DNA of 41,297 bases from a virus. Taxonomy: Duplodnaviria > Heunggongvirae > Uroviricota > Caudoviricetes. The stretch covers positions 1 to 41,297 of IMG/VR virus record IMGVR_UViG_2897346870_000001, one strand, 5' to 3'. Under the pieces are notes generated by a model that was not told where the DNA came from, searched no databases, and saw only the letters and a program-made list of their open reading frames with translations. This document shows positions 2,796 to 38,624 of this stretch, one piece after another; position 1 is the stretch's first letter, and the number at the start of each line of letters is the position of its first letter. The translations under genes and the position numbers were made by a program.

Positions 2796-3737
2796 TTACA
2801 TAGATGTTTCGTTTAATTCTTCCCGACGAACGCTGTAAACGTCGGTGGCTTTTGCCAGCAGTTCGTCATCATCTGAAAGTTTTTGTGCAATGTATTTGTA
2901 AGCCTTATCCAGTTCGGAGACAGTGCTGTAATTCATCGCTGCGCTGGTAAAGGCCATCAGCATTTCTTCTGGATCACGGCTATCCGGTTTACGCGTTTGC
3001 TCATCAGGCTTTTTCGCTGGTTTAGCGTTGATCAGACTGTTCATTCCCGCAGCAGTGGTCGTTTGCGGAGTAATGTCTCGCTCAACGCGCGGTGCCGTTT
3101 CCTGTAATTCGTCTGGGGTGTAGACGCCCATGATTACGTCAGGACAGTGCAGGCGAGACCAGCGTTTTGTCGCAAGGTATGCGAGTTGTTGTTTCGGATC
3201 ACTGGCCCAAAGTGTGGAGTTTCTTACCTGTGCTTGAGACAGCATTAACTCAAGCACTCGAGGTTGATCCTCGCCCTTCATGGTTGCCCATACGCGAACA
3301 CCGCAGCCTTCTTCGTCTTTTAGAGTCCAGCCTGGTGCGATATATGGATTGCCGTTTTTGGATGTTTTCTCAACAAACTTACCGATCACGCGTTCCCACG
3401 GCCCGAACCACTCGTAGTTGATGCGATCTTTTGTTGGCGACATCGTTGAGATAACTGCGTTTACTAATTGGGCTTCATAACCTAGCGTGCCGTTCACAAC
3501 ATGGGTTTTCTGAGCCACGGCAAACGGGTTCATTCCCCACTGCGCAGCCTGCATTGCCACGGCCATGCAATCAGCTGGTTTCCCGGCGAGGTGCGCCGGT
3601 ACCGTTACGCGGCTTTGCGCCATTACCTCGGCGAATTTCATCAGTTGGTTCAAGCCGTCTGGGCTGAAAATAGTTGCAGCAGTTCCAGCGATTGCTGTGT
3701 CTACTGGTGCGTTGATGTTTGCGATGTCGTTGCTCAT
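2796..3737 (-). CDS. RecT/Red-beta family single-strand annealing protein
   Basis: About 313 aa; conserved core (CMAVAMQAAQWGMNPF...) and C-terminal pattern comparable to lambda Bet/RecT; directly downstream of and translationally coupled (ATGA at 3734..3737) to a PD-(D/E)XK exonuclease gene. Confidence 0.7.
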   Translation of the reverse strand: MSNDIANINAPVDTAIAGTAATIFSPDGLNQLMKFAEVMAQSRVTVPAHLAGKPADCMAVAMQAAQWGMNPFAVAQKTHVVNGTLGYEAQLVNAVISTMSPTKDRINYEWFGPWERVIGKFVEKTSKNGNPYIAPGWTLKDEEGCGVRVWATMKGEDQPRVLELMLSQAQVRNSTLWASDPKQQLAYLATKRWSRLHCPDVIMGVYTPDELQETAPRVERDITPQTTTAAGMNSLINAKPAKKPDEQTRKPDSRDPEEMLMAFTSAAMNYSTVSELDKAYKYIAQKLSDDDELLAKATDVYSVRREELNETSM

Positions 3738-4555
3738 ATGTACATATCCTGTTTGCGTGCCCACTCAGGGCGTTTAATGATTTCCACACCGCCCCATTCA
3801 TCATTGATGCGGCATTCGTGATAGGTATTCAGATCCCGGCGGAACAGAGCGTGCCCGGCATCGACATCCTGCGCATCCAGCTCGAACACGCGTACCGGAT
3901 ACCGACCACAATCAATGCTTTCGCTCACGGCAAGAAAGAAAAAACCATGCGGCTGACCAGTAACCCTCATTGCGCCTTCGCGGTACATTGCGTCCTGCAC
4001 GTGGTAGCGGAATTCCTCGATGTGGCGTGCAAAACGGTCCATATCTGCAACCTTTTTCACGTCGACGATCACGTTGTGCTCGTTCAGCCATTTGTCTGGA
4101 CGAATTCGGCACAACTCACCCGTCTCTTCATCGTTCCAGTACATTGATGCTTCGCAGTAACCAGGTGCTTCCAGCATCCAGCGTGCCGCCGGATGAGCCA
4201 TTGCGCTATCACGCATCAGCTCCAGTTTTCGCCACTGCTCGACATCAAGTACCGTAATACCCATATCCGCCACATCACGAAGAAATGCTTCTTCGTCAGC
4301 TTTACCTTGTTTTGTCCGACGATCGAACTTCGGTGAAACAATGAAGCGTTTGTCGAATTCTCCAGGCTCCAGAAGCAGACAGTGCAATGCGGTTCCCATA
4401 TCCAGTGCAGACTTTTTCTCTTCGTCTTCTGGTGCTGCCTGAACCCATTTAAGAAGCGCCGGATTCTTGGCAACCATGTCCAGTTGCGACTTACTCACGC
4501 CGTCACCGGCGTGGTAGTCTTCGTTGCTGATGTCGAAATAAATTCCCGGTTTCAT
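3734..4555 (-). CDS. PD-(D/E)XK exonuclease (YqaJ / lambda-Exo-like recombination nuclease)
   Basis: 273 aa; N-terminal GIYFDISNEDYHAG and internal D...E.K signatures of YqaJ-type phage exonucleases; paired with the RecT-like gene. Confidence 0.7.
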   Translation of the reverse strand: MKPGIYFDISNEDYHAGDGVSKSQLDMVAKNPALLKWVQAAPEDEEKKSALDMGTALHCLLLEPGEFDKRFIVSPKFDRRTKQGKADEEAFLRDVADMGITVLDVEQWRKLELMRDSAMAHPAARWMLEAPGYCEASMYWNDEETGELCRIRPDKWLNEHNVIVDVKKVADMDRFARHIEEFRYHVQDAMYREGAMRVTGQPHGFFFLAVSESIDCGRYPVRVFELDAQDVDAGHALFRRDLNTYHECRINDEWGGVEIIKRPEWARKQDMYI

Positions 4556-4851
4556 GCCGCTTCCCTCTGCCCATCAATCCGATCCGCCAGATCCCAGCGG
4601 GCGATAATTGCCATTGCCTCGCGCCGGTAGGCATCCATAAGTTCTTCGAACTCAGGGCTGTCTTTAGCTGCCTCCAGCACTTCCTGGCGAACTCCTTTGC
4701 CTGTTACAGCGTCAAAAGTTGAGGCCAGTTGATGAAGCCGGATGCTCTCGATCAGTTCAACTTGTCGGTCATATAGCTGTTCTGACAGGCGGTAGTCCTT
4801 GTCGAATGCCAGCATGATTTTTTGAAGATTTTTCTGCTGATTAACGTTCAT
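4552..4851 (-). CDS. Hypothetical early protein
   Basis: About 100 aa (MNVNQQKNLQK...), overlaps the exonuclease start; first protein-sized gene of the leftward operon. Confidence 0.45.
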   Translation of the reverse strand: MNVNQQKNLQKIMLAFDKDYRLSEQLYDRQVELIESIRLHQLASTFDAVTGKGVRQEVLEAAKDSPEFEELMDAYRREAMAIIARWDLADRIDGQREAA

Positions 4852-4853
4852 TA

Positions 4854-5006
4854 TCAGCCCTCCCATATCTCGTTATCGTTGGCCACATCGCGAGCTTCTT
4901 TGCTGACGAAAGCCCACTTAATGCCTTCCTGTAAGGTGCGGAACTTCCAGCTCATGAATCCGCATGCAGTAACGCAGTACCAACCGTTGATGATTTTCCA
5001 CTGCAT
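4854..5006 (-). CDS. Small ORF (50 aa) absent from the ORF track
   Basis: Hand translation MQWKIINGWYCVTACGFMSWKFRTLQEGIKWAFVSKEARDVANDNEIWEG; GAGGT Shine-Dalgarno 9 nt upstream; stop is 2 nt before the next gene start. Confidence 0.25.
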   Translation of the reverse strand: MQWKIINGWYCVTACGFMSWKFRTLQEGIKWAFVSKEARDVANDNEIWEG

Positions 5007-5087
5007 AACTTGTTACCTCGGTCTGTTACCGTTGAGGTAATAATTATGCGTATTTGGTTTGATGTCAATAGATATGAGTTAAAAAAA

Positions 5088-5102
5088 TTACCTATTAGGT
5101 AA
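5088..5102. promoter_or_regulatory. OL-like operator palindrome TTACCTATTAGGTAA
   Basis: Near-perfect 15-bp inverted repeat at the head of the leftward early operon, just downstream of the repressor gene terminator. Confidence 0.5.
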
Positions 5103-5159: not shown

Positions 5160-5744
5160 TTATTGTTTGTTTTTTTCGTTCTGGTTGATGACAAATTCAA
5201 TATAACTTTCGATCTTTGCTTTCTCGGTTTCGGGTAACAATGCGTAGCGCGAGCGGTCATAGTTGATGGTCGCAGGGTCGTGCGGGTGAATCAGTAATTC
5301 ATAGCCGTGACGCCCGAATGCGGATGCAACATTCTCCAGGGTGGAAATGGAAACGCTGACCTCATTGTTTAACAGGCGGCTGATTGTCACCTGGGCGACG
5401 CCGGATGCGCGGTGAAGTTTTCCCTGTGTTGAAAGGTCGCGGCTTTCGCTCATCCAGCGTTCCAGGTTGTGAGCCGCCAGCTGACCAATGTCGCTTGGGC
5501 CGACAGGCTGAAAACCTTCCTGAGAAAGCGAGCGATCGATATCAAGCCAGTTACGTGGTTTATTGGCGGCAGCTTCAATTTTTCGCGCAACCTGGTCGCC
5601 GATAACCTTCTTGCCAAGAGCCCAGCGGTTTACCAGATTTGCCTGAGTTCCAAGTTTTTCTGCCATCCGCGTCTGAACACCATTGAATTCACGGTCGATC
5701 AAGTCGTTGAGATTTTGCCTGCGGACGTCCTGGATACTTTTCAT
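5160..5744 (-). CDS. Prophage repressor, tandem HTH (XRE-type), no peptidase S24 domain
   Basis: 194 aa with two HTH-like segments (TRMAEKLGTQANLVNRW and ASGVAQVTISRLLNN); divergent from the Cro-like gene across a three-operator region; no LexA-like Ser/Lys autocleavage module recognised. Confidence 0.75.
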   Translation of the reverse strand: MKSIQDVRRQNLNDLIDREFNGVQTRMAEKLGTQANLVNRWALGKKVIGDQVARKIEAAANKPRNWLDIDRSLSQEGFQPVGPSDIGQLAAHNLERWMSESRDLSTQGKLHRASGVAQVTISRLLNNEVSVSISTLENVASAFGRHGYELLIHPHDPATINYDRSRYALLPETEKAKIESYIEFVINQNEKNKQ

Positions 5745-5799: not shown

Positions 5800-5862
5800 T
5801 TACCCAACAGGTAAATGCACCTCATAGGTAACTATCCTTGATTTTTGTTACCTTATGGGTGA
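5800..5862. promoter_or_regulatory. Tripartite OR-like operator region with divergent promoters
   Basis: Three 15-bp sites: 5800..5814 TTACCCAACAGGTAA, 5817..5831 GCACCTCATAGGTAA, 5848..5862 TTACCTTATGGGTGA. Candidate rightward promoter (-35 TTGTTA 5845..5850, -10 TATTAT about 5868..5873) overlaps the third site. Confidence 0.55.
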
Positions 5863-8130: not shown

Positions 8131-8207
8131 TTACCTGTTAGGTAATAAAATATTCTAAAATCTATTGATTTCGTGTCTTATGTGGTTTTTAATTACCTCA
8201 GAGGTAA
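8131..8207. promoter_or_regulatory. Two operator palindromes upstream of the nin-like operon
   Basis: 8131..8145 TTACCTGTTAGGTAA and 8193..8207 TTACCTCAGAGGTAA; the second overlaps the Shine-Dalgarno of the 8211 gene; motif ATGTGGTT at 8180..8187. Confidence 0.45.
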
Positions 8208-11428: not shown

Positions 11429-11471
11429 GCATGGTACTATTACCACAACGGTAACTATTACCACGGTGGTT

Positions 11472-12068
11472 ATGATGCCTGCTGAACCTAAAACCTATAA
11501 ACGCAAATCAACGCAATTTAAGCCACTAACAGCAATGCAGGAGGCTTATTGCCAGTCATACATCAAAACGCCTGAAAACCAGACTCAGGCAGCGATTAAC
11601 GCAGGATTCTCCCCAAATACAGCGGCAGTTAAAGCCAGTGTCATGATGCGCGATGAACGCATTCAAAAACGGATTGCCGAGTTGATGGAGGAGCGCAACA
11701 AACGAATGCGCGTCAGTGCTGATTACGTTCTCATGCGCCTGGTGGAGATCGACCAGATGGACGTGATCGACATCCTCAACGACGATGGGAGCCTTAAACC
11801 AATCCGTGAGTGGCCGAAAATCTGGCGCACTACGCTTAGCGGCTTTGATCTGTCATCGACCATCATGAACATGAACGAGGATTCGATAGAGACAATCCTC
11901 AAAAAAATTAAATGGCCTGACAAGGTGAAGAACCTTGAGCTGATTGGTAAGCATGTTGATGTCAACGCGTTCAAAGAACGCCTGGATGTTAATGTGAATG
12001 TGACAATTGCTGATCGCATAGCGGCAGCCAGGAAGAGACTGAAAGAACGTCAGGATGGCAATCAGTGA
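11472..12068 (+). CDS. Terminase small subunit
   Basis: Terminase_2-type pattern LTAMQEAYCQSYIKTPENQTQAAINAGFSPNTA...IQKRIAEL. Start placed at the internal ATG (MMPAEPK) after the terminator rather than the track start 11394. Confidence 0.75.
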   Translation: MMPAEPKTYKRKSTQFKPLTAMQEAYCQSYIKTPENQTQAAINAGFSPNTAAVKASVMMRDERIQKRIAELMEERNKRMRVSADYVLMRLVEIDQMDVIDILNDDGSLKPIREWPKIWRTTLSGFDLSSTIMNMNEDSIETILKKIKWPDKVKNLELIGKHVDVNAFKERLDVNVNVTIADRIAAARKRLKERQDGNQ

Positions 12069-13630: not shown

Positions 13631-14137
13631 TTATTGAATTACAATCCAGTCATCAGATAGCAGATCGGTTTGAGATGCCAGCCACGGTACAAAGCAACCG
13701 TCAGCAGTTTTCATCCCAATCCACGGTAGAAGTTTAACGCCAGGTACAAATGTATACTCGTCACCGCATGTAACGTCAAATCGCCAATCGTTCGGAGTGG
13801 CCGATTGCGGTGGCTTAACCAGTTGCAGATACATGCCTTTGCCATTCCATCCGGCACGTGCAATGCGCTTACCATCTTTGAGTGATGACAAAGCAGTGGA
13901 GAAAGATACTGTTGATATTTCAGAACGTTGTGCTGTTATCCAGTCATGGAACGTAACGCTAGTACCATGGTCTTCGCTAAGAGTTAACCCGGCCAGTCCC
14001 TCACTCTGAATTACTTCGTAATGCATTTCATTACCAGCAAAAACGCCATAAAAAACGCAGTCTTCAGCCTGAACGATACGAGAATATTTTAATGGCCATT
14101 CATTTAGATACTTAGCCAACATATCAATTGTTTTCAT
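13631..14137 (-). CDS. DUF2829-domain protein (Tad2-like candidate anti-defence protein) with unknown N-terminal extension
   Basis: C-terminal half carries the DUF2829 hallmarks ARAGWNGKGMYL and WLASQTDLLSDDWIV; leftward gene in an accessory cassette with a tRNA between the terminase and portal. Confidence 0.6.
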   Translation of the reverse strand: MKTIDMLAKYLNEWPLKYSRIVQAEDCVFYGVFAGNEMHYEVIQSEGLAGLTLSEDHGTSVTFHDWITAQRSEISTVSFSTALSSLKDGKRIARAGWNGKGMYLQLVKPPQSATPNDWRFDVTCGDEYTFVPGVKLLPWIGMKTADGCFVPWLASQTDLLSDDWIVIQ

Positions 14138-14335: not shown

Positions 14336-14412
14336 TGGCGTGGCATGCAGGATTCGAACCTGCGACCAACCGCTTAGAAGGCGGTTGCTCTGTCCAACTT
14401 AGCTAATGCCAC
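14336..14412 (-). tRNA. tRNA-Arg (anticodon UCU)
   Basis: 77-nt minus-strand cloverleaf: 7-bp acceptor stem GTGGCAT/ATGCCAC, anticodon stem ACCGC/GCGGT with loop CTTCTAA (UCU), T-arm GCAGG-TTCGAAT-CCTGC, discriminator G plus encoded CCA; close to E. coli argU in the 3' half. Confidence 0.85.
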
Positions 14413-14734: not shown

Positions 14735-14749
14735 TTACCTGAAAGGTAA
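14735..14749. promoter_or_regulatory. Operator-like palindrome TTACCTGAAAGGTAA upstream of the structural operon
   Basis: Perfect-arm copy of the dispersed motif; CATATGTGGTT at 14791..14801. Confidence 0.4.
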
Positions 14750-30890: not shown

Positions 30891-31262
30891 ATGAACAGAA
30901 TTATATTAATGATTATTCTTATGCTTTTAGTTGTAAAATCTTTTGCAGATACTACCTCACCGTTAATGATTCAGCCTAAAAATGGGGAAACACTGGAGGA
31001 TTCTAAAAAGCATACAATGGAATATTTTGGATGTATAAAAGGGCAGGCCGTAAAATACGCTAAGACAGGAGAAAGTGTTGATTCTATATCCAAAGCTTCG
31101 GTTGTGTCATGCGAGTCGTACATACAAAAGATTGCTGAATCAAATATATACTATTTAAATTCCTCTCAAGACGGTAAGCGGAAATTTATTGGAAGGCTTA
31201 AATCAGATGGTGAAAGTTTAGCAACGAAATTTGCTATGGATGAAAAGCTAAAAAATAAATAG
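30891..31262 (+). CDS. AT-rich moron: secreted protein with signal peptide
   Basis: 123 aa; N-terminal MNRIILMIILMLLVVKSFA signal peptide, two Cys; GC content visibly much lower than neighbouring genes; start 1 nt after the preceding stop. Confidence 0.55.
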   Translation: MNRIILMIILMLLVVKSFADTTSPLMIQPKNGETLEDSKKHTMEYFGCIKGQAVKYAKTGESVDSISKASVVSCESYIQKIAESNIYYLNSSQDGKRKFIGRLKSDGESLATKFAMDEKLKNK

Positions 31263-31372
31263 GTGACTACATGCAAGCGATAGGATTCATTGGGCTGATG
31301 GTTTGCAGCTAACCTGCAAGTTTGCGAAGTGCCAAACAAATAATCTCACGGCGCTGTTCATCCCCAGGAAGC

Positions 31373-31395
31373 TGCATTGTGATTTTCACAATGCA
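31373..31395 (+). terminator. Perfect 10-bp hairpin TGCATTGTGA-TTT-TCACAATGCA
   Basis: Downstream of the moron gene; followed by GGTTTTAAA; possible end of the late transcript. Confidence 0.35.
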
Positions 31396-31412
31396 GGTTT
31401 TAAACCACTGCT

Positions 31413-31619
31413 TCATTTTCGTAAAGCCATACAAATCATGGCTTGCACCCCACCGGCAGAAGGTATGGTGATTTCCACCATACCCTTCGAGAAGCGTTGA
31501 GAAATCTTCTTATGTTGAGATTTCCAGTCTAGACCCATTCCCTCAACGATAGGTTTCATTGGGGTGTACGGTTCGCCGTTGTGATTGACAACATAAAGTT
31601 CTGCGCCGTGGAATGGCAC
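31413..31619 (-). pseudogene. Possible truncated antirepressor/Rha-like N-terminal fragment
   Basis: 68-aa GTG-initiated ORF (VVNHNGEPYTPMKPIVEGMGLDWKSQHKKI) resembling N-terminal DNA-binding domains of Rha/Ant proteins, with no Shine-Dalgarno and no C-terminal domain. Confidence 0.2.
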
Positions 31620-31766
31620 GTTGATAGTAGTGACAAATTTGAAACATCGCTGGTTGTAAGCCAGCAGATGCTCGTTATTTTACGTCGCGGCACAATTTCT
31701 CGCTGCTGGCTCTTTTACACGCATTAACCAAATATGGTTGATTTTAATATCCACCTGTGCCTATTA

Positions 31767-31846
31767 TTACCTTTGCGGTAAATTTACATCGCACTCCTCT
31801 TGTGCCATAGTAATCGGGCACTGGCAAAATCCAGTGCCGGGATTGG
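31767..31846. repeat. Inverted repeat IR-A, left copy (antirepressor promoter/leader)
   Basis: About 80 bp, near-identical in reverse complement to 34928..35007; includes operator TTACCTTTGCGGTAA (31767..31781) and the palindromic hairpin GCACTGG-CAAAAT-CCAGTGC. Confidence 0.8.
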
Positions 31847-32048
31847 TCTCCCGGATTACTACAGAGGCACATATGCCGCATAAGCGGTTTTTTTATGTGT
31901 AAAGCGCACCTATTCTATGGTGGGCTGTGTGGGGGCACCGAAAGGTGCGCCGGGTTCCTTTGTAGCCGGTAAGACCAACTCTGCACAGTTCACCACCATC
32001 TGATTGGTCTCAGCGGTGGTGATTAACCTAACTACAAAGGTGATCGCC

Positions 32049-32741
32049 ATGAATACCAAACCTTCCATCTTTTCCTTTGAGTCATCCTGCCAGATCCGTA
32101 TGTTCATGATTGACGGAGAACCTTGGTTTGTCACCAAAGATGTGTGCAATGCTTTGAATATTGATGTTACACAAGCGAGAAAACTTGATAAAAAAGGCTG
32201 GAACAAAAAGGGGCTGTATTCAATACAGACCCCTGGTGGAATACAAGAACTATCCATCGTTTCAGAATCAGGTCTCTACATCCTTATTCTGCGTTGCAAA
32301 GAGGCAATGACTGAGGGAACGAGAGCATTCAGATTTCTTGAATGGGTTACAGGTGAGGTTCTTCCTCAGATCCGCCGCACCGGAAGCTACATTAAAAACT
32401 CGCTCCCGCAGGAAGAGCGCATAAAGATGGTTGCCGACCAGGTAGCCAACGCCACGGCGTCAGCAGTAATGCAGGCGATGAAGATAGAGAACAAAACCTA
32501 CAGTGCCCCACTGAAGCCCGGCTACCGCAGCCTGATTCATTCGCCGTCTGGTGTTCTCGGCCTGACGGAGAACTCACTGCTGATGAATCTGCTGAACCAG
32601 TTACAGGAAGACGGGCATGACGTATCGGGCGCGGCGGCGGAGTTGACCACCATGTTCTGCTACATCGTCGGTGTGAACAAATGCCTGCGTGATATCCAGA
32701 CGCACGCGGAGTACATCAACGACAAAGCAGGGTTCTTCTGA
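32049..32741 (+). CDS. Antirepressor, BRO-N N-terminal domain plus shared C-terminal domain (copy 1)
   Basis: N-terminus MNTKPSIFSFESSCQIRMFMIDGEPWFVTKDVCNALNI is a BRO-N-type fold; C-terminal 125 aa nearly identical to the gene at 34013..34723; AGGTGA Shine-Dalgarno. Confidence 0.7.
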   Translation: MNTKPSIFSFESSCQIRMFMIDGEPWFVTKDVCNALNIDVTQARKLDKKGWNKKGLYSIQTPGGIQELSIVSESGLYILILRCKEAMTEGTRAFRFLEWVTGEVLPQIRRTGSYIKNSLPQEERIKMVADQVANATASAVMQAMKIENKTYSAPLKPGYRSLIHSPSGVLGLTENSLLMNLLNQLQEDGHDVSGAAAELTTMFCYIVGVNKCLRDIQTHAEYINDKAGFF

Positions 32742-32743
32742 CG
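32341..32743. repeat. Inverted repeat IR-B, left copy (3' half of antirepressor 1)
   Basis: About 400 bp, near-identical in reverse complement to 34011..34413; produces mirrored 61-aa artefact ORFs in the track (32392..32577 and 34177..34362). Confidence 0.85.
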
Positions 32744-32778
32744 AGCGGCGGCACAGGGATGTGCAAAACGAAACTATC

Positions 32779-32815
32779 GTGACATGTCACAGGCCGCTTT
32801 CGCGGCCTTGTTTTT
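32779..32815 (+). terminator. GTGACATGTCAC copy 3 fused to a strong rho-independent terminator
   Basis: Palindrome 32779..32790 directly followed by AGGCCGC-TTTC-GCGGCCT plus TGTTTTT (32791..32815). Confidence 0.7.
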
Positions 32816-32975
32816 AACGAATGCCACCGCCACCCGGGCGGGAATCCGCAGAACGCCCACCGCAGCGGGAGCCGTCAGCAGCAGTGTCGCTGTCGTGCTG
32901 ACAACGACCGGCAAAGGCCTGAGTTGAAGCTACCAGAGACAACAAAACGAACAGTGCAGCAAATGCTTTTTTCAT
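32814..32975 (-). CDS. Small secreted protein (53 aa) with signal peptide
   Basis: MKKAFAALFVLLSLVASTQAFA signal peptide then a Gly/Arg/Asp-rich 31-aa mature region with two Cys; start at the internal ATG of track ORF 32814..33047. Confidence 0.4.
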   Translation of the reverse strand: MKKAFAALFVLLSLVASTQAFAGRCQHDSDTAADGSRCGGRSADSRPGGGGIR

Positions 32976-33056
32976 TGTGAAATTTCCATCTATAAACCAC
33001 CTCAATGTGGCGTCAATGAGTGTAGCACTGACTTTTGTTTCGTCCATAAAAAACTA

Positions 33057-33569
33057 CTATGCAGGCTTTTTGGATTTGTACGAATAATCCCACGGATAAA
33101 CATTTCTACTAAGTGGAGCTGTATTCGTTCGTTCATGAAATAATTTTGTGAAATTCAATACGGAATCCATCCAAACTTTTGCGTTAGCTTTGGTGTGTGC
33201 GGGCGGGTCCCAATAAGCTAGTAAGGCTGCATCTCTTATTTCATTGACTGCATATATGAGATATGCGTTACTGGTTGGTTTTGGCCTGTAATTTCCTTGT
33301 TCATCAATCAATCCATATGACCACTCATCCCAACACTGTTCAGTACATGAGTATGAATATGATGCATATTCACCAATATTGACATGAACCTTTCTGAGAT
33401 GGAAGCCTAATACTTCCTCTGGTCTTTCAAAAAGAGTATCTTTTCCCAGATCAGGATGATGACCATGACGCCAGTGTTGTTTAAAAGCATCTTTTAGCGA
33501 AATCAGAAAGTCATCAGTTTTAAACTCACCAGTAGGTATAACCTTCCCGCTATACTCACTCAAAAACAT
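33057..33569 (-). CDS. YafO-like toxin candidate (type II toxin-antitoxin family)
   Basis: By-eye alignment to E. coli YafO recalled from memory: HPDLGKDTLFE vs LPDIFGRDALYD, LRKVHVNI vs ERVAHIHL, AYLIYAVNEIRDAALLAYWDPPAH vs AHLVYCQGAFDEQAWLLIAILKPEPH. AT-rich; overlaps the upstream gene by 14 nt. Confidence 0.5.
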   Translation of the reverse strand: MFLSEYSGKVIPTGEFKTDDFLISLKDAFKQHWRHGHHPDLGKDTLFERPEEVLGFHLRKVHVNIGEYASYSYSCTEQCWDEWSYGLIDEQGNYRPKPTSNAYLIYAVNEIRDAALLAYWDPPAHTKANAKVWMDSVLNFTKLFHERTNTAPLSRNVYPWDYSYKSKKPA

Positions 33570-33882
33570 CGAATTCCTCTTCCTTCATATGCGTTTCTAA
33601 TGAGTTAAGCTGGCGGAAAGATATCTCTTTTGATTCTGCAGATGAGAGCTTTTTTATCCGCTTTATATTCTTTGTGATAGGAATAGACATTGTATGCACA
33701 TCAGCGGATGCTCTTGGCTTTGTGCTGATAAAAATATGGCGCAATGCCGCATTTTCACTATTGAACGAGCCAATAGCTGATTTACGTGCTACAACCTTAC
33801 CAGTAAAAATACGACTCTTGCTACGCTTTGCATGAGTTCCGCTTCTTACCGGACCTCTCATCACGAATCCAAGTTTTGTCAT
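33556..33882 (-). CDS. Putative antitoxin/partner of the YafO-like gene (unknown family)
   Basis: 108 aa, basic with acidic C-terminus (MKEEEFDVFE); first gene of a two-gene overlapping operon; GGAG Shine-Dalgarno. Confidence 0.35.
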   Translation of the reverse strand: MTKLGFVMRGPVRSGTHAKRSKSRIFTGKVVARKSAIGSFNSENAALRHIFISTKPRASADVHTMSIPITKNIKRIKKLSSAESKEISFRQLNSLETHMKEEEFDVFE

Positions 33883-33924
33883 CTTTAATCTCCGGTAAGT
33901 TACAGGTATAAAATAAAAACAGGT

Positions 33925-33939
33925 TTACCTTTAAGGTAA
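33925..33939. promoter_or_regulatory. Operator palindrome TTACCTTTAAGGTAA upstream of the toxin-like operon
   Basis: Perfect-arm copy of the dispersed motif, 43 nt upstream of the 33882 start on the minus strand. Confidence 0.45.
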
Positions 33940-34010
33940 TAGTACGCTATTCACCCACAGTCTGCAATCTGTACAGAATTATTTAAAGGCACATCCCTGT
34001 GCCGCCGTTC

Positions 34011-34413
34011 TGTCAGAAGAACCCTGCCTTGTCGTTGATGTACTCCGCGTGCGTCTGGATATCACGCAGGCATTTGCTCACACCGACGATGTAGCAGAAC
34101 ATGGTGGTCAGTTCCGCCGCCGCGCCCGATACATCATGCCCGTCGTCCTGCAACTGATTCAGCAGATTCATCAGCAATGAGTTCTCCGTCAGGCCGAGAA
34201 CACCAGACGGCGAATGAATCAGACTGCGGTAGCCGGGCTTCAGCGGGGCGCTGTAGGTTTTGTTCTCTATCTTCATCGCCTGCATTACTGCTGACGCCGT
34301 GGCGTTGGCTACCTGGTCGGCAACCATCTTTATGCGTTCTTCCTGCGGGAGCGAGTTTTTAATGTAACTTCCGGTGCGGCGGATCTGAGGAAGAACCTCA
34401 CCTGTAACCCATT
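34011..34413. repeat. Inverted repeat IR-B, right copy
   Basis: Reverse complement of 32341..32743. Confidence 0.85.
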
Positions 34414-34723
34414 TGCGAAAGCGGTAGGGGATAGTGCCTGGTGTCACTGCGTCGCGGCAGCGGAGGATCAGTGTGTAGAGGCCTGACTCGGAGATGATGT
34501 TGATCTCTTTTACTCGGCTGTCAAAAATTGCACGATGTTCATGCCCTATGTTGAACATAGACCTTTCATCATCATCCAGTTTTTCAAGTGCTTGGGTGAC
34601 GTTTTGGATACGCAGCGCACTACAAACGTCTTGGGCTACAAACCATGGTTGGCCATCGATAATGATGGAACGGATAGGGTTAACAGATTCAAATTTGAAG
34701 ATGGCAGTTTGAGCATTAGCCAT
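34013..34723 (-). CDS. Antirepressor, BRO-N N-terminal domain plus shared C-terminal domain (copy 2)
   Basis: N-terminus MANAQTAIFKFESVNPIRSIIIDGQPWFVAQDVCSALRI (BRO-N-type); C-terminal domain differs from copy 1 at only 2 of about 118 residues; GGAG Shine-Dalgarno. Confidence 0.7.
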   Translation of the reverse strand: MANAQTAIFKFESVNPIRSIIIDGQPWFVAQDVCSALRIQNVTQALEKLDDDERSMFNIGHEHRAIFDSRVKEINIISESGLYTLILRCRDAVTPGTIPYRFRKWVTGEVLPQIRRTGSYIKNSLPQEERIKMVADQVANATASAVMQAMKIENKTYSAPLKPGYRSLIHSPSGVLGLTENSLLMNLLNQLQDDGHDVSGAAAELTTMFCYIVGVSKCLRDIQTHAEYINDKAGFF

Positions 34724-34927
34724 GGTGGTTATCTCCACTTAGTGATTTTAATCACCACCGCAACGCCAATTACTGGTGGTGAACTGGACAAGGTTGGCGT
34801 ACCGGCCTAAGTGGTACCGGCGTCCTTTCGGACCCCTGCCCAGCCCACCATAATTCGGATATAGCTGTGCTTAACGCATAAAAAAACCACGTCTGGCGTG
34901 GTATGCGCCACTTAGTAACTCGGGACG

Positions 34928-35007
34928 CCAATCCCGGCACTGGATTTTGCCAGTACCCGATTACTATGGCACAAGAGGAGTGCGATGTAAATTTACCTCA
35001 AAGGTAA
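34928..35007. repeat. Inverted repeat IR-A, right copy (antirepressor 2 promoter/leader)
   Basis: Reverse complement of 31767..31846; contains operator at 34993..35007 (TTACCTCAAAGGTAA). Confidence 0.8.
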
Positions 35008-35038
35008 ATATAAGCACTCCACTTGGTAATTGCAAACC

Positions 35039-35296
35039 TTATCTGGTTTGCTTTCGTAATTGTTCGGCACAATAGTCGAGATGTGTTTGCAGATCCTGCA
35101 TAGACATCTGTGAGCTGGTGACGTAGTTAATCAGTGCAGTCAGTTCGGCAAGTGGGCCATCGACATTAAATCCATCCTTATCGAGATCCCGGAGTAATTT
35201 CATCAAGTGCGATCCCTCCACCAGTGATCTGACGCCTCCCGGCGTGTGAATCCTTTCGGTAAATCCCTCTTCCAGTGGATAGTGATACTGCTGCAT
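35039..35296 (-). CDS. Stand-alone paralogue of the antirepressor C-terminal domain
   Basis: 85 aa; TPGGVRSLVEGSHLMKLLRDLDKDGFNVDGPLAELTALINYV...DLQTH parallels SPSGVLGLTENSLLMNLLNQLQEDGHDVSGAAAELTTMFCYI...DIQTH of the two antirepressors; GGAGAAG Shine-Dalgarno. Confidence 0.45.
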   Translation of the reverse strand: MQQYHYPLEEGFTERIHTPGGVRSLVEGSHLMKLLRDLDKDGFNVDGPLAELTALINYVTSSQMSMQDLQTHLDYCAEQLRKQTR

Positions 35297-35372
35297 CTTA
35301 TCTTCTCCATGCAATAACTGTATAAATATACAGTATCAAATAATTTGTTTGCTATCCAGCACGTTTTGCAAA

Positions 35373-35387
35373 TCACCTGAAAGGTAA
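35373..35387. promoter_or_regulatory. Operator-like palindrome TCACCTGAAAGGTAA in the divergent region before the tailspike
   Basis: One-mismatch copy of the motif; CATATGTGGTT at 35418..35428. Confidence 0.4.
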
Positions 35388-38207: not shown

Positions 38208-38624
38208 ATGGTGTTTATCATGTCAATTCAGACAACCAGTGATTCTTTGAATCAGTGGCTTAGCATGACTTCTCTGGCGGCGGTGATAGCAGGAGTTCCT
38301 CCCGAGGTTGCTTTGGGGGCTTTGGCTGGAGCGGTAATTTTTGTTACCTCTGCGGTAGAGTATCCCATTCGTCGTCGTGTACTCTTGTCGATGCTTAGCT
38401 TTCTCTGCGGCCTTCTTTTTTATAAACCAGCAGCATCAATTCTTATCGGCATAGCCAGCCTGATCCCTACTATCACGCAGGACTCTTTTGAAAAAGGGAT
38501 TGTTTTCTCTGCTGGCGCATTCGTGTCAGCAATTGTTGCTGTGCGTATTGGTATATGGCTCTACCACCGTTCCGATAATCCACGCGAGTTAATTCCGGGG
38601 AGAAAAGACGATGGTAACGCATGA
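38208..38624 (+). CDS. Holin
   Basis: Small protein with multiple hydrophobic transmembrane segments and charged C-terminus; first gene of the lysis cassette. Dual ATG starts at 38208 and 38220. Confidence 0.6.
   Translation: MVFIMSIQTTSDSLNQWLSMTSLAAVIAGVPPEVALGALAGAVIFVTSAVEYPIRRRVLLSMLSFLCGLLFYKPAASILIGIASLIPTITQDSFEKGIVFSAGAFVSAIVAVRIGIWLYHRSDNPRELIPGRKDDGNA

Follow-up and report, generated by a model that had tools for sequence, protein, structure and literature searches.

Convergent antirepressor modules with C4- and IsrK-family RNAs in an epsilon15-like prophage of Escherichia coli

Why does a prophage carry two antirepressor genes that face each other within nested inverted repeats? 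The question is raised by positions 31767 to 35007 of a viral sequence of 41,297 nt (Caudoviricetes; IMG/VR record IMGVR_UViG_2897346870_000001, positions 1 to 41,297; this whole stretch is referred to as the window). There, the antirepressor genes antL and antR flank a toxin-like cargo cassette. The window was 100 % identical to the chromosome of the complete genome of E. coli PF9285 and represents a complete prophage of approximately 40 kb, reaching from the integrase to the lysis genes, beyond which lie the host genes yfgI and yfgH. The nearest phages were phiV10, TL-2011b and vB_EcoP_ZX5 (ZX5), all of the genus Uetakevirus (epsilon15-like). With good confidence, we regard the segment as an immI-like anti-immunity region with two paralogous operons that converge and are built like P1/P7 immI and Gifsy-1 isrK; the whole segment has been inverted in nature.

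The duplicated unit and its regulatory RNAs

Pairwise alignment of 31730-32790 (plus strand) against 35045-33965 (minus strand) reproduced the two inverted repeats described in the initial annotation: 31767-31846 and 35007-34928 agreed in 78 of 80 positions (97.5 %), 32341-32743 and 34413-34010 in 389 of 404 (96.3 %). A repeat finder reported inverted pairs of 105 nt (31757-31861 and 34913-35017, 91 %) and of 504 nt (32239-32742 and 34012-34515, 89 %), and short colinear inverted pieces filled the stretch between both. Just beyond 31757 the identity was 37 %, just beyond 32764 it was 31 %. Between the conserved blocks, the left and right copies shared 73 % in the 3' part of the isrK region, 62 % in the C4 region, 60 % in the a2-b2-ribosome-binding site (RBS) region and 56 % in the BRO-N coding region. 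The units 31757-32764 (plus strand) and 35017-33989 (minus strand) are homologous over their full length, with two conserved blocks. The outer block (left arm 31757-31861, partner 34913-35017; 91.4 % over 105 nt, 97.4 % over 31767-31842) covers the operator, the promoter and hairpins 1 and 2 of an IsrK-like RNA, that is, the first 45 nt of the regulatory RNA. The inner block (left arm 32341-32764, partner 33989-34413; 96.5 %) covers the C-terminal coding half of the Ant proteins and a 3' hairpin of 23 nt. The longest stretch of perfect identity was 42 nt for the outer repeat and 86 nt for the inner one; repeats of such length and identity cannot be chance. They appear inverted since two copies of the unit converge. 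The earlier description of the outer repeat as near-identical promoters was right in that the promoter is identical, but too narrow, as the block includes the operator and the 5' part of the RNA. The nested repeats are population-wide conserved blocks of the unit, promoter and leader on one side and the Ant C-terminal domain on the other, not a dedicated switch. A perfect 12-nt palindrome, GTGACATGTCAC, was observed at 32779-32790 between the left inner arm and the antL terminator.

Both arms contained matches to two RNA families. The Rfam family isrK (RF01394) scored 74.7 bits in arm L and 63.5 bits in arm R at a gathering threshold (GA) of 50, the C4 family (RF01695) 78.6 and 66 bits at a GA of 45. 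The RefSeq annotation of the prophage, made with PGAP, does not include these RNAs. The order of elements was the same in each arm: a palindrome of the form TTACC-N5-GGTAA, a promoter, an IsrK-like leader with two hairpins and a terminator, the C4 RNA, the RBS of ant, and ant. In the left arm, the palindrome TTACCTTTGCGGTAA (31767-31781), a putative operator retained in 20 of 20 modules compared, precedes the promoter-like sequence TTTACA-N17-(TG)CATAGT (31783-31811, plus strand), which is the same in both arms and lies 7 nt upstream of the start of the IsrK model. The leader (31818-31894) carries the sites a1 (UUGGUCU, 31843-31849) and b1 (CUACAGAGG, 31859-31867) and an intrinsic terminator (31875-31888 and T7). 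The C4 antisense RNA (31913-32000) presents b' (CCUUUGUAG, 31957-31965) in a loop and a' (AGACCAA) at 31972-31978. Its target region (32004-32040) comprises a2 (UUGGUCU, 32004-32010) and b2 (CUACAAAGG, 32032-32040), the latter overlapping the Shine-Dalgarno sequence of antL. On the minus strand of the right arm, a motif scan located the promoter TTTACA-N17-CATAGT together with the palindrome TTACCTCAAAGGTAA (34993-35007) within 34963-35007. There follow the leader (34880-34956; a1 34931-34925, b1 34915-34908, terminator 34902-34886 and T7), the C4 RNA (34772-34855; b' CCACUUAG 34814-34807, a' ACGCCAA 34800-34794) and the targets (34735-34769; a2 UUGGCGU 34769-34763, b2 CUAAGUGG 34742-34735 over the Shine-Dalgarno sequence). 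The minimum-energy fold of the C4 RNA corresponded to the family consensus, with b' in the hairpin loop and a' single-stranded, and the leader terminators were also found independently of Rfam in a terminator scan. A promoter scan was uninformative (7 hits versus 7.2 expected from shuffles); the promoter calls rest on the position relative to the 5' end of IsrK and on conservation. In both modules, no leader open reading frame (ORF) ended at or overlapped the ant start in the manner of P1 icd or Gifsy-1 orf45. In ZX5, a gene annotated as 'ash family protein' (positions 1779-1892 of locus L132) overlies the C4 RNA.

The gene antL (32049-32741, plus strand) codes for 230 aa with a BRO-N domain in residues 16-106 (Pfam Bro-N, 1.8e-13) fused to an SPC32H-Ant-like domain in residues 149-225, and was assigned to anti-repressor families of PHROG. 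Residues 149-225 matched the whole SPC32H Ant (PDB 5D50_E, E = 9e-14). An intrinsic terminator follows at 32791-32818 on the same strand (terminator scan; stem 32791-32808 and a T run). The gene antR (34013-34723, minus strand) codes for 236 aa with a BRO-N and an SPC32H-Ant-like domain, 81 % identical to ORF4 of ZX5; the C-terminal half of this ZX5 BRO-N antirepressor is essentially identical to that of AntR (one substitution, E/D). Overexpression of ORF4 shifts ZX5 towards the lytic cycle (PMC9782041). AntL and AntR both contain the Bro-N domain and are 75 % identical overall. The divergence of their N-terminal domains and the difference of only two residues in their C-terminal domains had been noticed before and were found again, the latter as E/D and N/S within the last 133 residues. 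By their domain matches, the large Ants are to be described as a BRO-N domain fused to an SPC32H-type Ant domain, and the fused C-terminal domain is predicted to bind and disassemble a non-cleavable repressor, Rep.

A candidate for this repressor is encoded at 5160-5744 (minus strand; 194 aa, two helix-turn-helix (HTH) domains; PDB 5D50_A, E = 4e-42), with operator pairs at 5026/5088 and 5800/5848 on either side. Pfam gave HTH domains only and no S24 peptidase domain. In SPC32H, palindromic DNA is bound by a Rep tetramer, which is broken up when an Ant tetramer attaches to two Rep dimers (PMC9638917). The palindrome TTACC-N5-GGTAA occurred 14 times in the window versus 0.64 expected copies, clustered around rep, and is therefore a plausible, sequence-based candidate for the Rep operator. 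Four copies belong to the locus, at the promoters of antL, antR, the cargo (TTACCTTTAAGGTAA, 33925-33939, in the conserved promoter region 33922-33988) and a third, stand-alone ant gene (35373-35387, one mismatch). This gene (35039-35296, minus strand) codes for an 85-aa Ant, an orthologue of the SPC32H antirepressor (PDB 5D50_E, E = 1.6e-47) that is 42 % identical to the C-terminus of AntL. A perfect LexA box by motif, CTGTATAAATATACAG (CTGT-N8-ACAG, 35318-35333), lies 22 nt upstream of its start codon. The ten other palindromes (5026-5102, 5800-5862, 8131-8207, 11440-11472, 14735-14749, 38344-38358), among them several pairs 18-62 bp apart, flank rep and stand ahead of early and late operons. 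Their dispersal looks like a Rep operator network, similar to the scattered distribution of C1 operators in P1.

Matched site sets and inversion isomers

Modules L and R differed in SPECIFICITIES, and the few differences within the outer repeat are the specificity determinants. Module L has the matched set UUGGUCU/AGACCAA (a) and CUACAAAGG/CCUUUGUAG (b), module R the set UUGGCGU/ACGCCAA (a) and CUAAGUGG/CCACUUAG (b). Contiguous pairing amounted to 7 pairs for cognate a sites and 8-9 for cognate b sites, versus 3-5 for non-cognate combinations. The matching was followed in 143 modules (51 unique) from approximately 130 loci, namely 10 E. coli prophages and approximately 120 viral contigs. Two a-types and four b-types were present, and seven of the eight possible combinations were seen. 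In every one of the 143 modules, a1, a' and a2 matched each other, as did b1, b' and b2. In an alignment of 52 sequences, 98.9 % of the cells of a1:a' and b1:b' were paired versus 33-51 % with the partner slid by 1-3 columns; double changes were found in five pairs (45 cells), and none of 500 shuffles reached the observed covariation. For b':b2, 96.9 % of the cells were paired, again reached by none of 500 shuffles. All 15 informative two-module loci were convergent, with the modules 2.6-4.8 kb apart, and none combined two modules with the same a and b types; the probability of this by chance is about 0.035 for independent loci, but these loci are related. Whole-RNA duplex energies had been tried as a test for cognate partners and gave no separation from non-cognate ones; they ignore intramolecular structure, and site complementarity and covariation were used instead. 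As the matched site sets differ, modules L and R should be largely orthogonal, comparable to the heteroimmune phages P1 and P7, and this orthogonality may be partial.

Both orientations of the segment exist in nature. An exact inversion isomer of the window locus was present in IMG/VR UViG 2541047735_000003 (L024). Its left and right flanks aligned on the plus strand (99.5 % and 95.9 % identity), its interior of 3,051 nt between the outer arms on the opposite strand (98.7 %). The arms are chimeric: the left-specific upstream sequence is joined to an R-type a1/b1, the right-specific upstream sequence to an L-type a1/b1. Therefore, the crossover took place downstream of the operator and upstream of a1, within a stretch of 76 nt, and so left each a1/b1 with its cognate C4. 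The block differed from the window in 37 substitutions, thus L024 represents an independent strain. A second inverted case was found in the complete genome of MS 196-1 (locus L006). Here, a block of leader, antL, peptide gene, YafO-like gene and 108-aa gene (98.6 % identical to 31757-34007) is reversed relative to both flanks, and the outer repeat forms its junction with the flank on the tailspike side; a module of the ORF6N type stands on the left in MS 196-1 and on the right in MLI109. In the enlarged cargo of MS 196-1, which contains a DUF2335 gene, part of the peptide-gene region is present a second time (32827-33053, 96.9 %; L006 3557-3718 and approximately 4745-4971).

L024 and MS 196-1 were the only two of approximately 125 loci, oriented by their right flank, with reversed cargo. 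Among 5,426 complete E. coli genomes searched, 572 of which matched, the MS 196-1 layout was present in MS 196-1 itself and in no other genome, and the L024 layout in none. Thus both orientations are seen between strains, not within a clone, and inversion is rare. APEC E18055, considered as an isomer by the inner repeat, proved to be of the usual layout, its left module being of the P22 type. The inversion suspected in the initial annotation does occur, but the orientation is nearly fixed, and the outer repeat was used, not the inner repeat of 400 bp. The accompanying argument that inversion would proceed by homologous recombination for lack of a serine invertase agrees with the PGAP annotation of the whole 40-kb prophage, in which no invertase gene and only a tyrosine integrase at the att end was present. 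A phage system for homologous recombination, a RecT-family recombinase and a PD-(D/E)XK nuclease (2796-4555, minus strand; PGAP, Pfam), could act on the inverted repeats, and the inversion presumably depends on RecA or RecT.

Cargo slot and surroundings in the prophage

As described before, a terminator, a YafO-like gene pair and a gene for a 53-aa peptide lie between the ant genes. The peptide gene (32814-32975, minus strand) has a signal-peptide-like N-terminus by eye and belongs to phrog_14503, 'membrane associated protein'. The YafO-like protein of 170 aa (33057-33569, minus strand) owes its name to PGAP; the Pfam family YafO_toxin matched with 20.1 bits, below the GA of 25. The TL-2011b allele scored 26.3 bits, the N21 allele, which shares 44 % identity with the protein of the window, gave no match, and searches of PDB, NCBIfam and PADLOC with the window protein were without result. 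The partner gene (33556-33882, minus strand; 108 aa) overlaps the YafO-like gene by 14 nt. It had no match in Pfam, NCBIfam, PADLOC or PDB, so no antitoxin family of the YafN/Phd-YefM type was recognised.

Comparison with related prophages, as proposed in the initial annotation, revealed different cargo between conserved flanks. The framework kept in nearly all relatives consists of 32778-33053 (peptide gene and terminator) and 33922-33988 (promoter and operator); the genes in between vary, and the borders of this exchangeable slot (33054-33921) are sharp. At least six cargo sets were found in relatives including L004, L006, L007, L008 and L009: the 108-aa and YafO-like pair in two allelic forms, 110 + 62 aa, 288 + 69 aa, 210 aa, 146 + 55 aa, and a longer set with a DUF2335 protein. 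Apart from DUF2335, the alternative cargo proteins belonged to no Pfam family. The view of the locus as a cassette-swapping hotspot holds for the slot, but its boundaries are the promoter region and the peptide gene, not antirepressor sequences. Since the cargo promoter carries a Rep operator, the slot genes may become active upon derepression and not during lysogeny. A second slot, unoccupied in the window, separates the right leader from the 85-aa ant gene. It holds an ORF of 242 aa in several relatives and a different YafO-like pair on the opposite strand in N21; its positions were L004 5903-6631, L008 6426-7154, L010 6075-6803 and L009 6185-7124.

The antirepressor modules themselves are also exchanged. 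BRO-N alleles, an 'Ant' type, a 168-aa + ORF6N type and a P22_AR_N type occur in the module slots, all with the same C-terminal segment. The antR type stands on the left in N21 (97.1 %); the antL type takes the right-hand place in UTME-9 (97.5 %), as it does in many genomes with a single module. Portions of the locus were present in 698 of the 5,426 complete E. coli genomes (about one eighth). Most matching genomes, as well as phiV10 and ZX5, have a single right-hand module; the left junction with two leaders was found in at least 45 complete genomes, among them ST131 strains. The layout of the window was also present in A_5 (98.1 % identity to the window).

The locus sits between the injection-protein genes and the tailspike gene. 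To its left lies the remnant of a P22-type antirepressor gene (31416-31619, minus strand; N-terminal 68 aa, P22_AR_N, Pfam 6.8e-21; a PGAP pseudogene). Together with a second fragment it occupies 31278-31700 on the minus strand, marked by a 20-nt direct repeat at 31278 and 31547. Its strand is opposite to that of the intact mnt-arc-ant modules in the left slot of relatives (APEC E18055, TL-2011b), which points to a rearrangement or inversion of earlier date. Immediately downstream of the last injection-protein gene, an ORF of 123 aa (30891-31262, plus strand) codes for a hydrophobic, signal-peptide-like N-terminus; it had no match in Pfam, PHROGs, NCBIfam or PADLOC and is common to N21 and L024, while most relatives have other genes in this place. 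Distant from the locus, between the terminase and portal genes and on the opposite strand to them, are an ORF of the DUF2829/Tad2-like type (Thoeris anti-defence 2-like; 13631-14137, minus strand) and a tRNA-Arg gene (14336-14412, minus strand), which could form an anti-defence moron.

Interpretation and relation to known systems

For the anti-immunity region, the following course of regulation is proposed. By means of a' and b', the C4 RNA would anneal to a2 and b2 in its own operon, so that translation of Ant would be blocked, and the short terminated leader with its decoy sites a1 and b1 would titrate C4 and relieve the block. The fused C-terminal domain of an Ant so released would inactivate the non-cleavable Rep. 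SOS induction despite a non-cleavable Rep would be mediated by the 85-aa Ant behind the LexA box, and the RNA-gated Ants may act mainly on superinfection, i.e., in anti-immunity. Recombination in the outer blocks appears to have inverted the segment of 3.26 kb in nature with each a1/b1-C4-a2/b2 set intact, and the conserved promoter with its putative Rep operator would drive the exchangeable cargo slot (33054-33921) and then the gene of the small secreted peptide. The published systems provide precedents for the single steps. In P1 and P7, synthesis of the antirepressor is prevented by pairing of c4 RNA with complementary sequences that surround the RBS of the ant mRNA; site differences underlie the heteroimmunity (PMC12197685). 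In Gifsy-1, transcripts partly stop at the IsrK terminator and the rest reads into the antirepressor gene, and the short RNA activates translation in trans (PMC4825925). The nucleotide sequence of orf45 is conserved while its amino acids vary, and a processed RNA, STnc1160, arises there (PMC4825925), which fits the orf45 region being a C4 RNA; by this description, Gifsy-1 orf45 would overlie a C4 RNA as well. Both IsrK and STnc1160 are made in lysogens, whatever the condition tested (PMC7067206).

Several observations weigh against this interpretation. The prophage is known from its sequence, and expression and interactions have been deduced from it. The family c4-a1b1 (RF03163), overlapping the isrK matches, scored 39.9 bits (L) and 43.4 bits (R), below its GA of 46.7. 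The Rep operator adjoins the promoters, which leaves the source of C4 in a lysogen in question; a second promoter-like site further upstream exists, yet promoter hits were not enriched over shuffles. The viral contigs were gathered with the exact leader pattern, thus the conservation of the leader is overstated. The a-types are only two bases apart, and modules with a or b in common coexist in some prophages, so that orthogonality may be partial. Finally, L024 is an IMG/VR record of unchecked assembly quality, and no inversion of the cargo alone, through the inner repeat, was found among the approximately 125 loci.

The nearly identical 3' halves of the ant genes had been attributed to recent gene conversion, and a sequence identity of 96.5 % in the C-terminal versus 56 % in the N-terminal half, the sharp boundary at 32341, the similarity running 23 nt past the stop codon and the presence of a RecT/nuclease system speak for it. 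However, the C-terminal segment showed 93-98 % identity across the Ant alleles of every genome, also across those with ORF6N, ANT and P22_AR_N N-termini. Over 296 nt of this segment, pairs within a genome differed in 8-18 positions (mean 12.3, 10 genomes), pairs between genomes in 5-22 (mean 13.4). With 13 differences, the pair of the window was not unusually close, and in none of the 10 genomes did its own copies cluster. Recent conversion inside this prophage is not specifically supported by these data and we consider it improbable. The similarity is that of a conserved block kept alike by frequent exchange, and probably also by the need to bind the same Rep. A related question is whether the modules are merely redundant, with both C4 RNAs repressing both ant genes and the site differences due to neutral drift. 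In this respect, the a sites differ at only two of seven bases, leaving 4-5 contiguous pairs with the wrong partner, and modules sharing a or b are paired in some prophages; but the three copies of each site changed together in 143 of 143 modules, double compensatory changes were far above shuffles, the b sites of the window keep only 3-4 contiguous pairs with the C4 of the other module, the same a and b combination was absent from the 15 two-module prophages, with the reservation on relatedness made above, and the heteroimmunity of P1 and P7 rests on comparable differences (PMC12197685). We therefore give redundancy little credit.

A programmed invertible switch in the style of Mu G, P1 C or the shufflons, with the repeats as sites of a dedicated recombinase, would account for nested inverted repeats with natural isomers, and orientation could matter because whichever module is on the right comes next after the LexA-controlled 85-aa ant gene, and no terminator intervenes. 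It is nevertheless very unlikely. Besides the integrase, neither a serine invertase nor a second tyrosine recombinase is present in the prophage, and the reversed cargo is as rare as described (2 of approximately 125 loci, 1 of 572 genomes). The block is symmetric with identical inward promoters at both ends, so that a flip alters no internal linkage of promoter and gene. The repeats are coding or regulatory sequence, conserved also in phages with a single copy, and an additional gene lies between the right leader and the 85-aa gene in several relatives. Short-read assemblers may go astray at inverted repeats and L024 is of uncertain provenance, but an assembly artefact or a chance similarity is hardly conceivable in view of the complete genome of PF9285, the same layout in A_5, two leaders in at least 45 complete genomes, the complete genome of MS 196-1 and the 37 substitutions which mark L024 as an independent strain.

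Returning to the two convergent anti-immunity operons, the convergent layout is probably kept because direct repeats would delete one module, while inverted repeats only invert. Two orthogonal modules may, as a speculation, widen the defensive and offensive range among related phages, which fits the absence of same-type pairs. A rather doubtful extension of this idea, 'two locks, two keys', holds that the twin arrangement is selected and that the conserved blocks serve as a scaffold for recombinational shuffling. If so, a lysogen with two orthogonal C4 RNAs would silence the antirepressors of more superinfecting relatives, and an invader would need only one Ant to escape the resident C4. Recombination would then reassort the 2 × 4 RNA code, the Ant N-termini and the Rep-controlled cargo slot, and would also change the module downstream of the SOS-controlled ant gene.

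Every component of the locus belongs to a described family (C4, IsrK, SPC32H Rep/Ant, BRO-N, the position of P22 immI), and this is not a new kind of mechanism. What appears to be new, as we found no description in the literature, is the C4/IsrK unit in Uetakevirus prophages and its fusion with the SPC32H Ant domain, and likewise the twin convergent arrangement with different specificities, the a × b code and the leader inversion. The c4 immunity of P1/P7, the IsrK RNA of Gifsy-1 and the Rep-Ant pair of SPC32H, so far studied apart, are united here in one regulatory unit. The locus offers a natural set of at least seven matched antisense/target specificities from two independently reassorting sites, open to testing as orthogonal RNA regulators and as determinants of heteroimmunity between phages. 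In addition, it documents an inversion of 3.3 kb through 76 nt of promoter and leader in which no cognate RNA set was broken, and it defines a repressor-controlled slot with many uncharacterised gene sets.

Among the closest known systems is immI of P1/P7, with the same C4 family in Rfam, a1/b1 upstream and a2/b2 downstream of C4, b2 at an RBS, ant further downstream, a promoter adjoining the operator of the main repressor, and specificity variants that differ by few compensated bases. Unlike immI, the locus has no icd-like coupling ORF, b2 covers the Shine-Dalgarno sequence of ant itself, an intrinsic terminator lies between a1/b1 and C4, and two convergent units differ in specificity; the effector domain of Ant is of the SPC32H type and unrelated to Ant1/2 of P1, and the phage is a podovirus of 40 kb. 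With isrK-orf45-anrP of the Salmonella prophage Gifsy-1 it shares a leader above the isrK threshold, a terminator that has to be read through to reach the antirepressor gene, and, between leader and antirepressor gene, a conserved region, in Gifsy-1 a processed RNA that is probably the equivalent of C4. However, the published Gifsy-1 model is an activation in trans by IsrK via orf45 coupling, whereas this locus has a bona fide C4 and no coupling ORF, is present in two copies and does not involve AntQ. With the Rep-Ant system of the epsilon15-like Salmonella phage SPC32H (PDB 5D50) the locus has in common the 85-aa ORF (approximately 90 % identical to SPC32H Ant), the Rep without an autocleavage domain (approximately 50 % identical) and the LexA box upstream of the small ant; as far as we found, that system as described consists of the small LexA-controlled Ant only, to which the locus adds two BRO-N fusions, presumably RNA-gated. 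The immI region of P22 (mnt-arc-ant, sar RNA) has the same place between injection genes and tailspike and the same role, and relatives hold an intact mnt/arc/P22_AR_N-ant in the left slot, of which the window keeps a remnant; in contrast to P22, the locus would use a trans-acting C4 and a decoy leader instead of Arc/Mnt and the cis-antisense sar RNA. The invertible segments Mu G/Gin, P1 C/Cin and Hin resemble the locus in the bounding inverted repeats and in the occurrence of both orientations in nature. They differ in that the locus has no invertase, its repeats are functional sequences of 105 and 424 bp versus sites of approximately 26 bp, its isomers are rare, and its inversion swaps neither promoters nor the 3' ends of genes.

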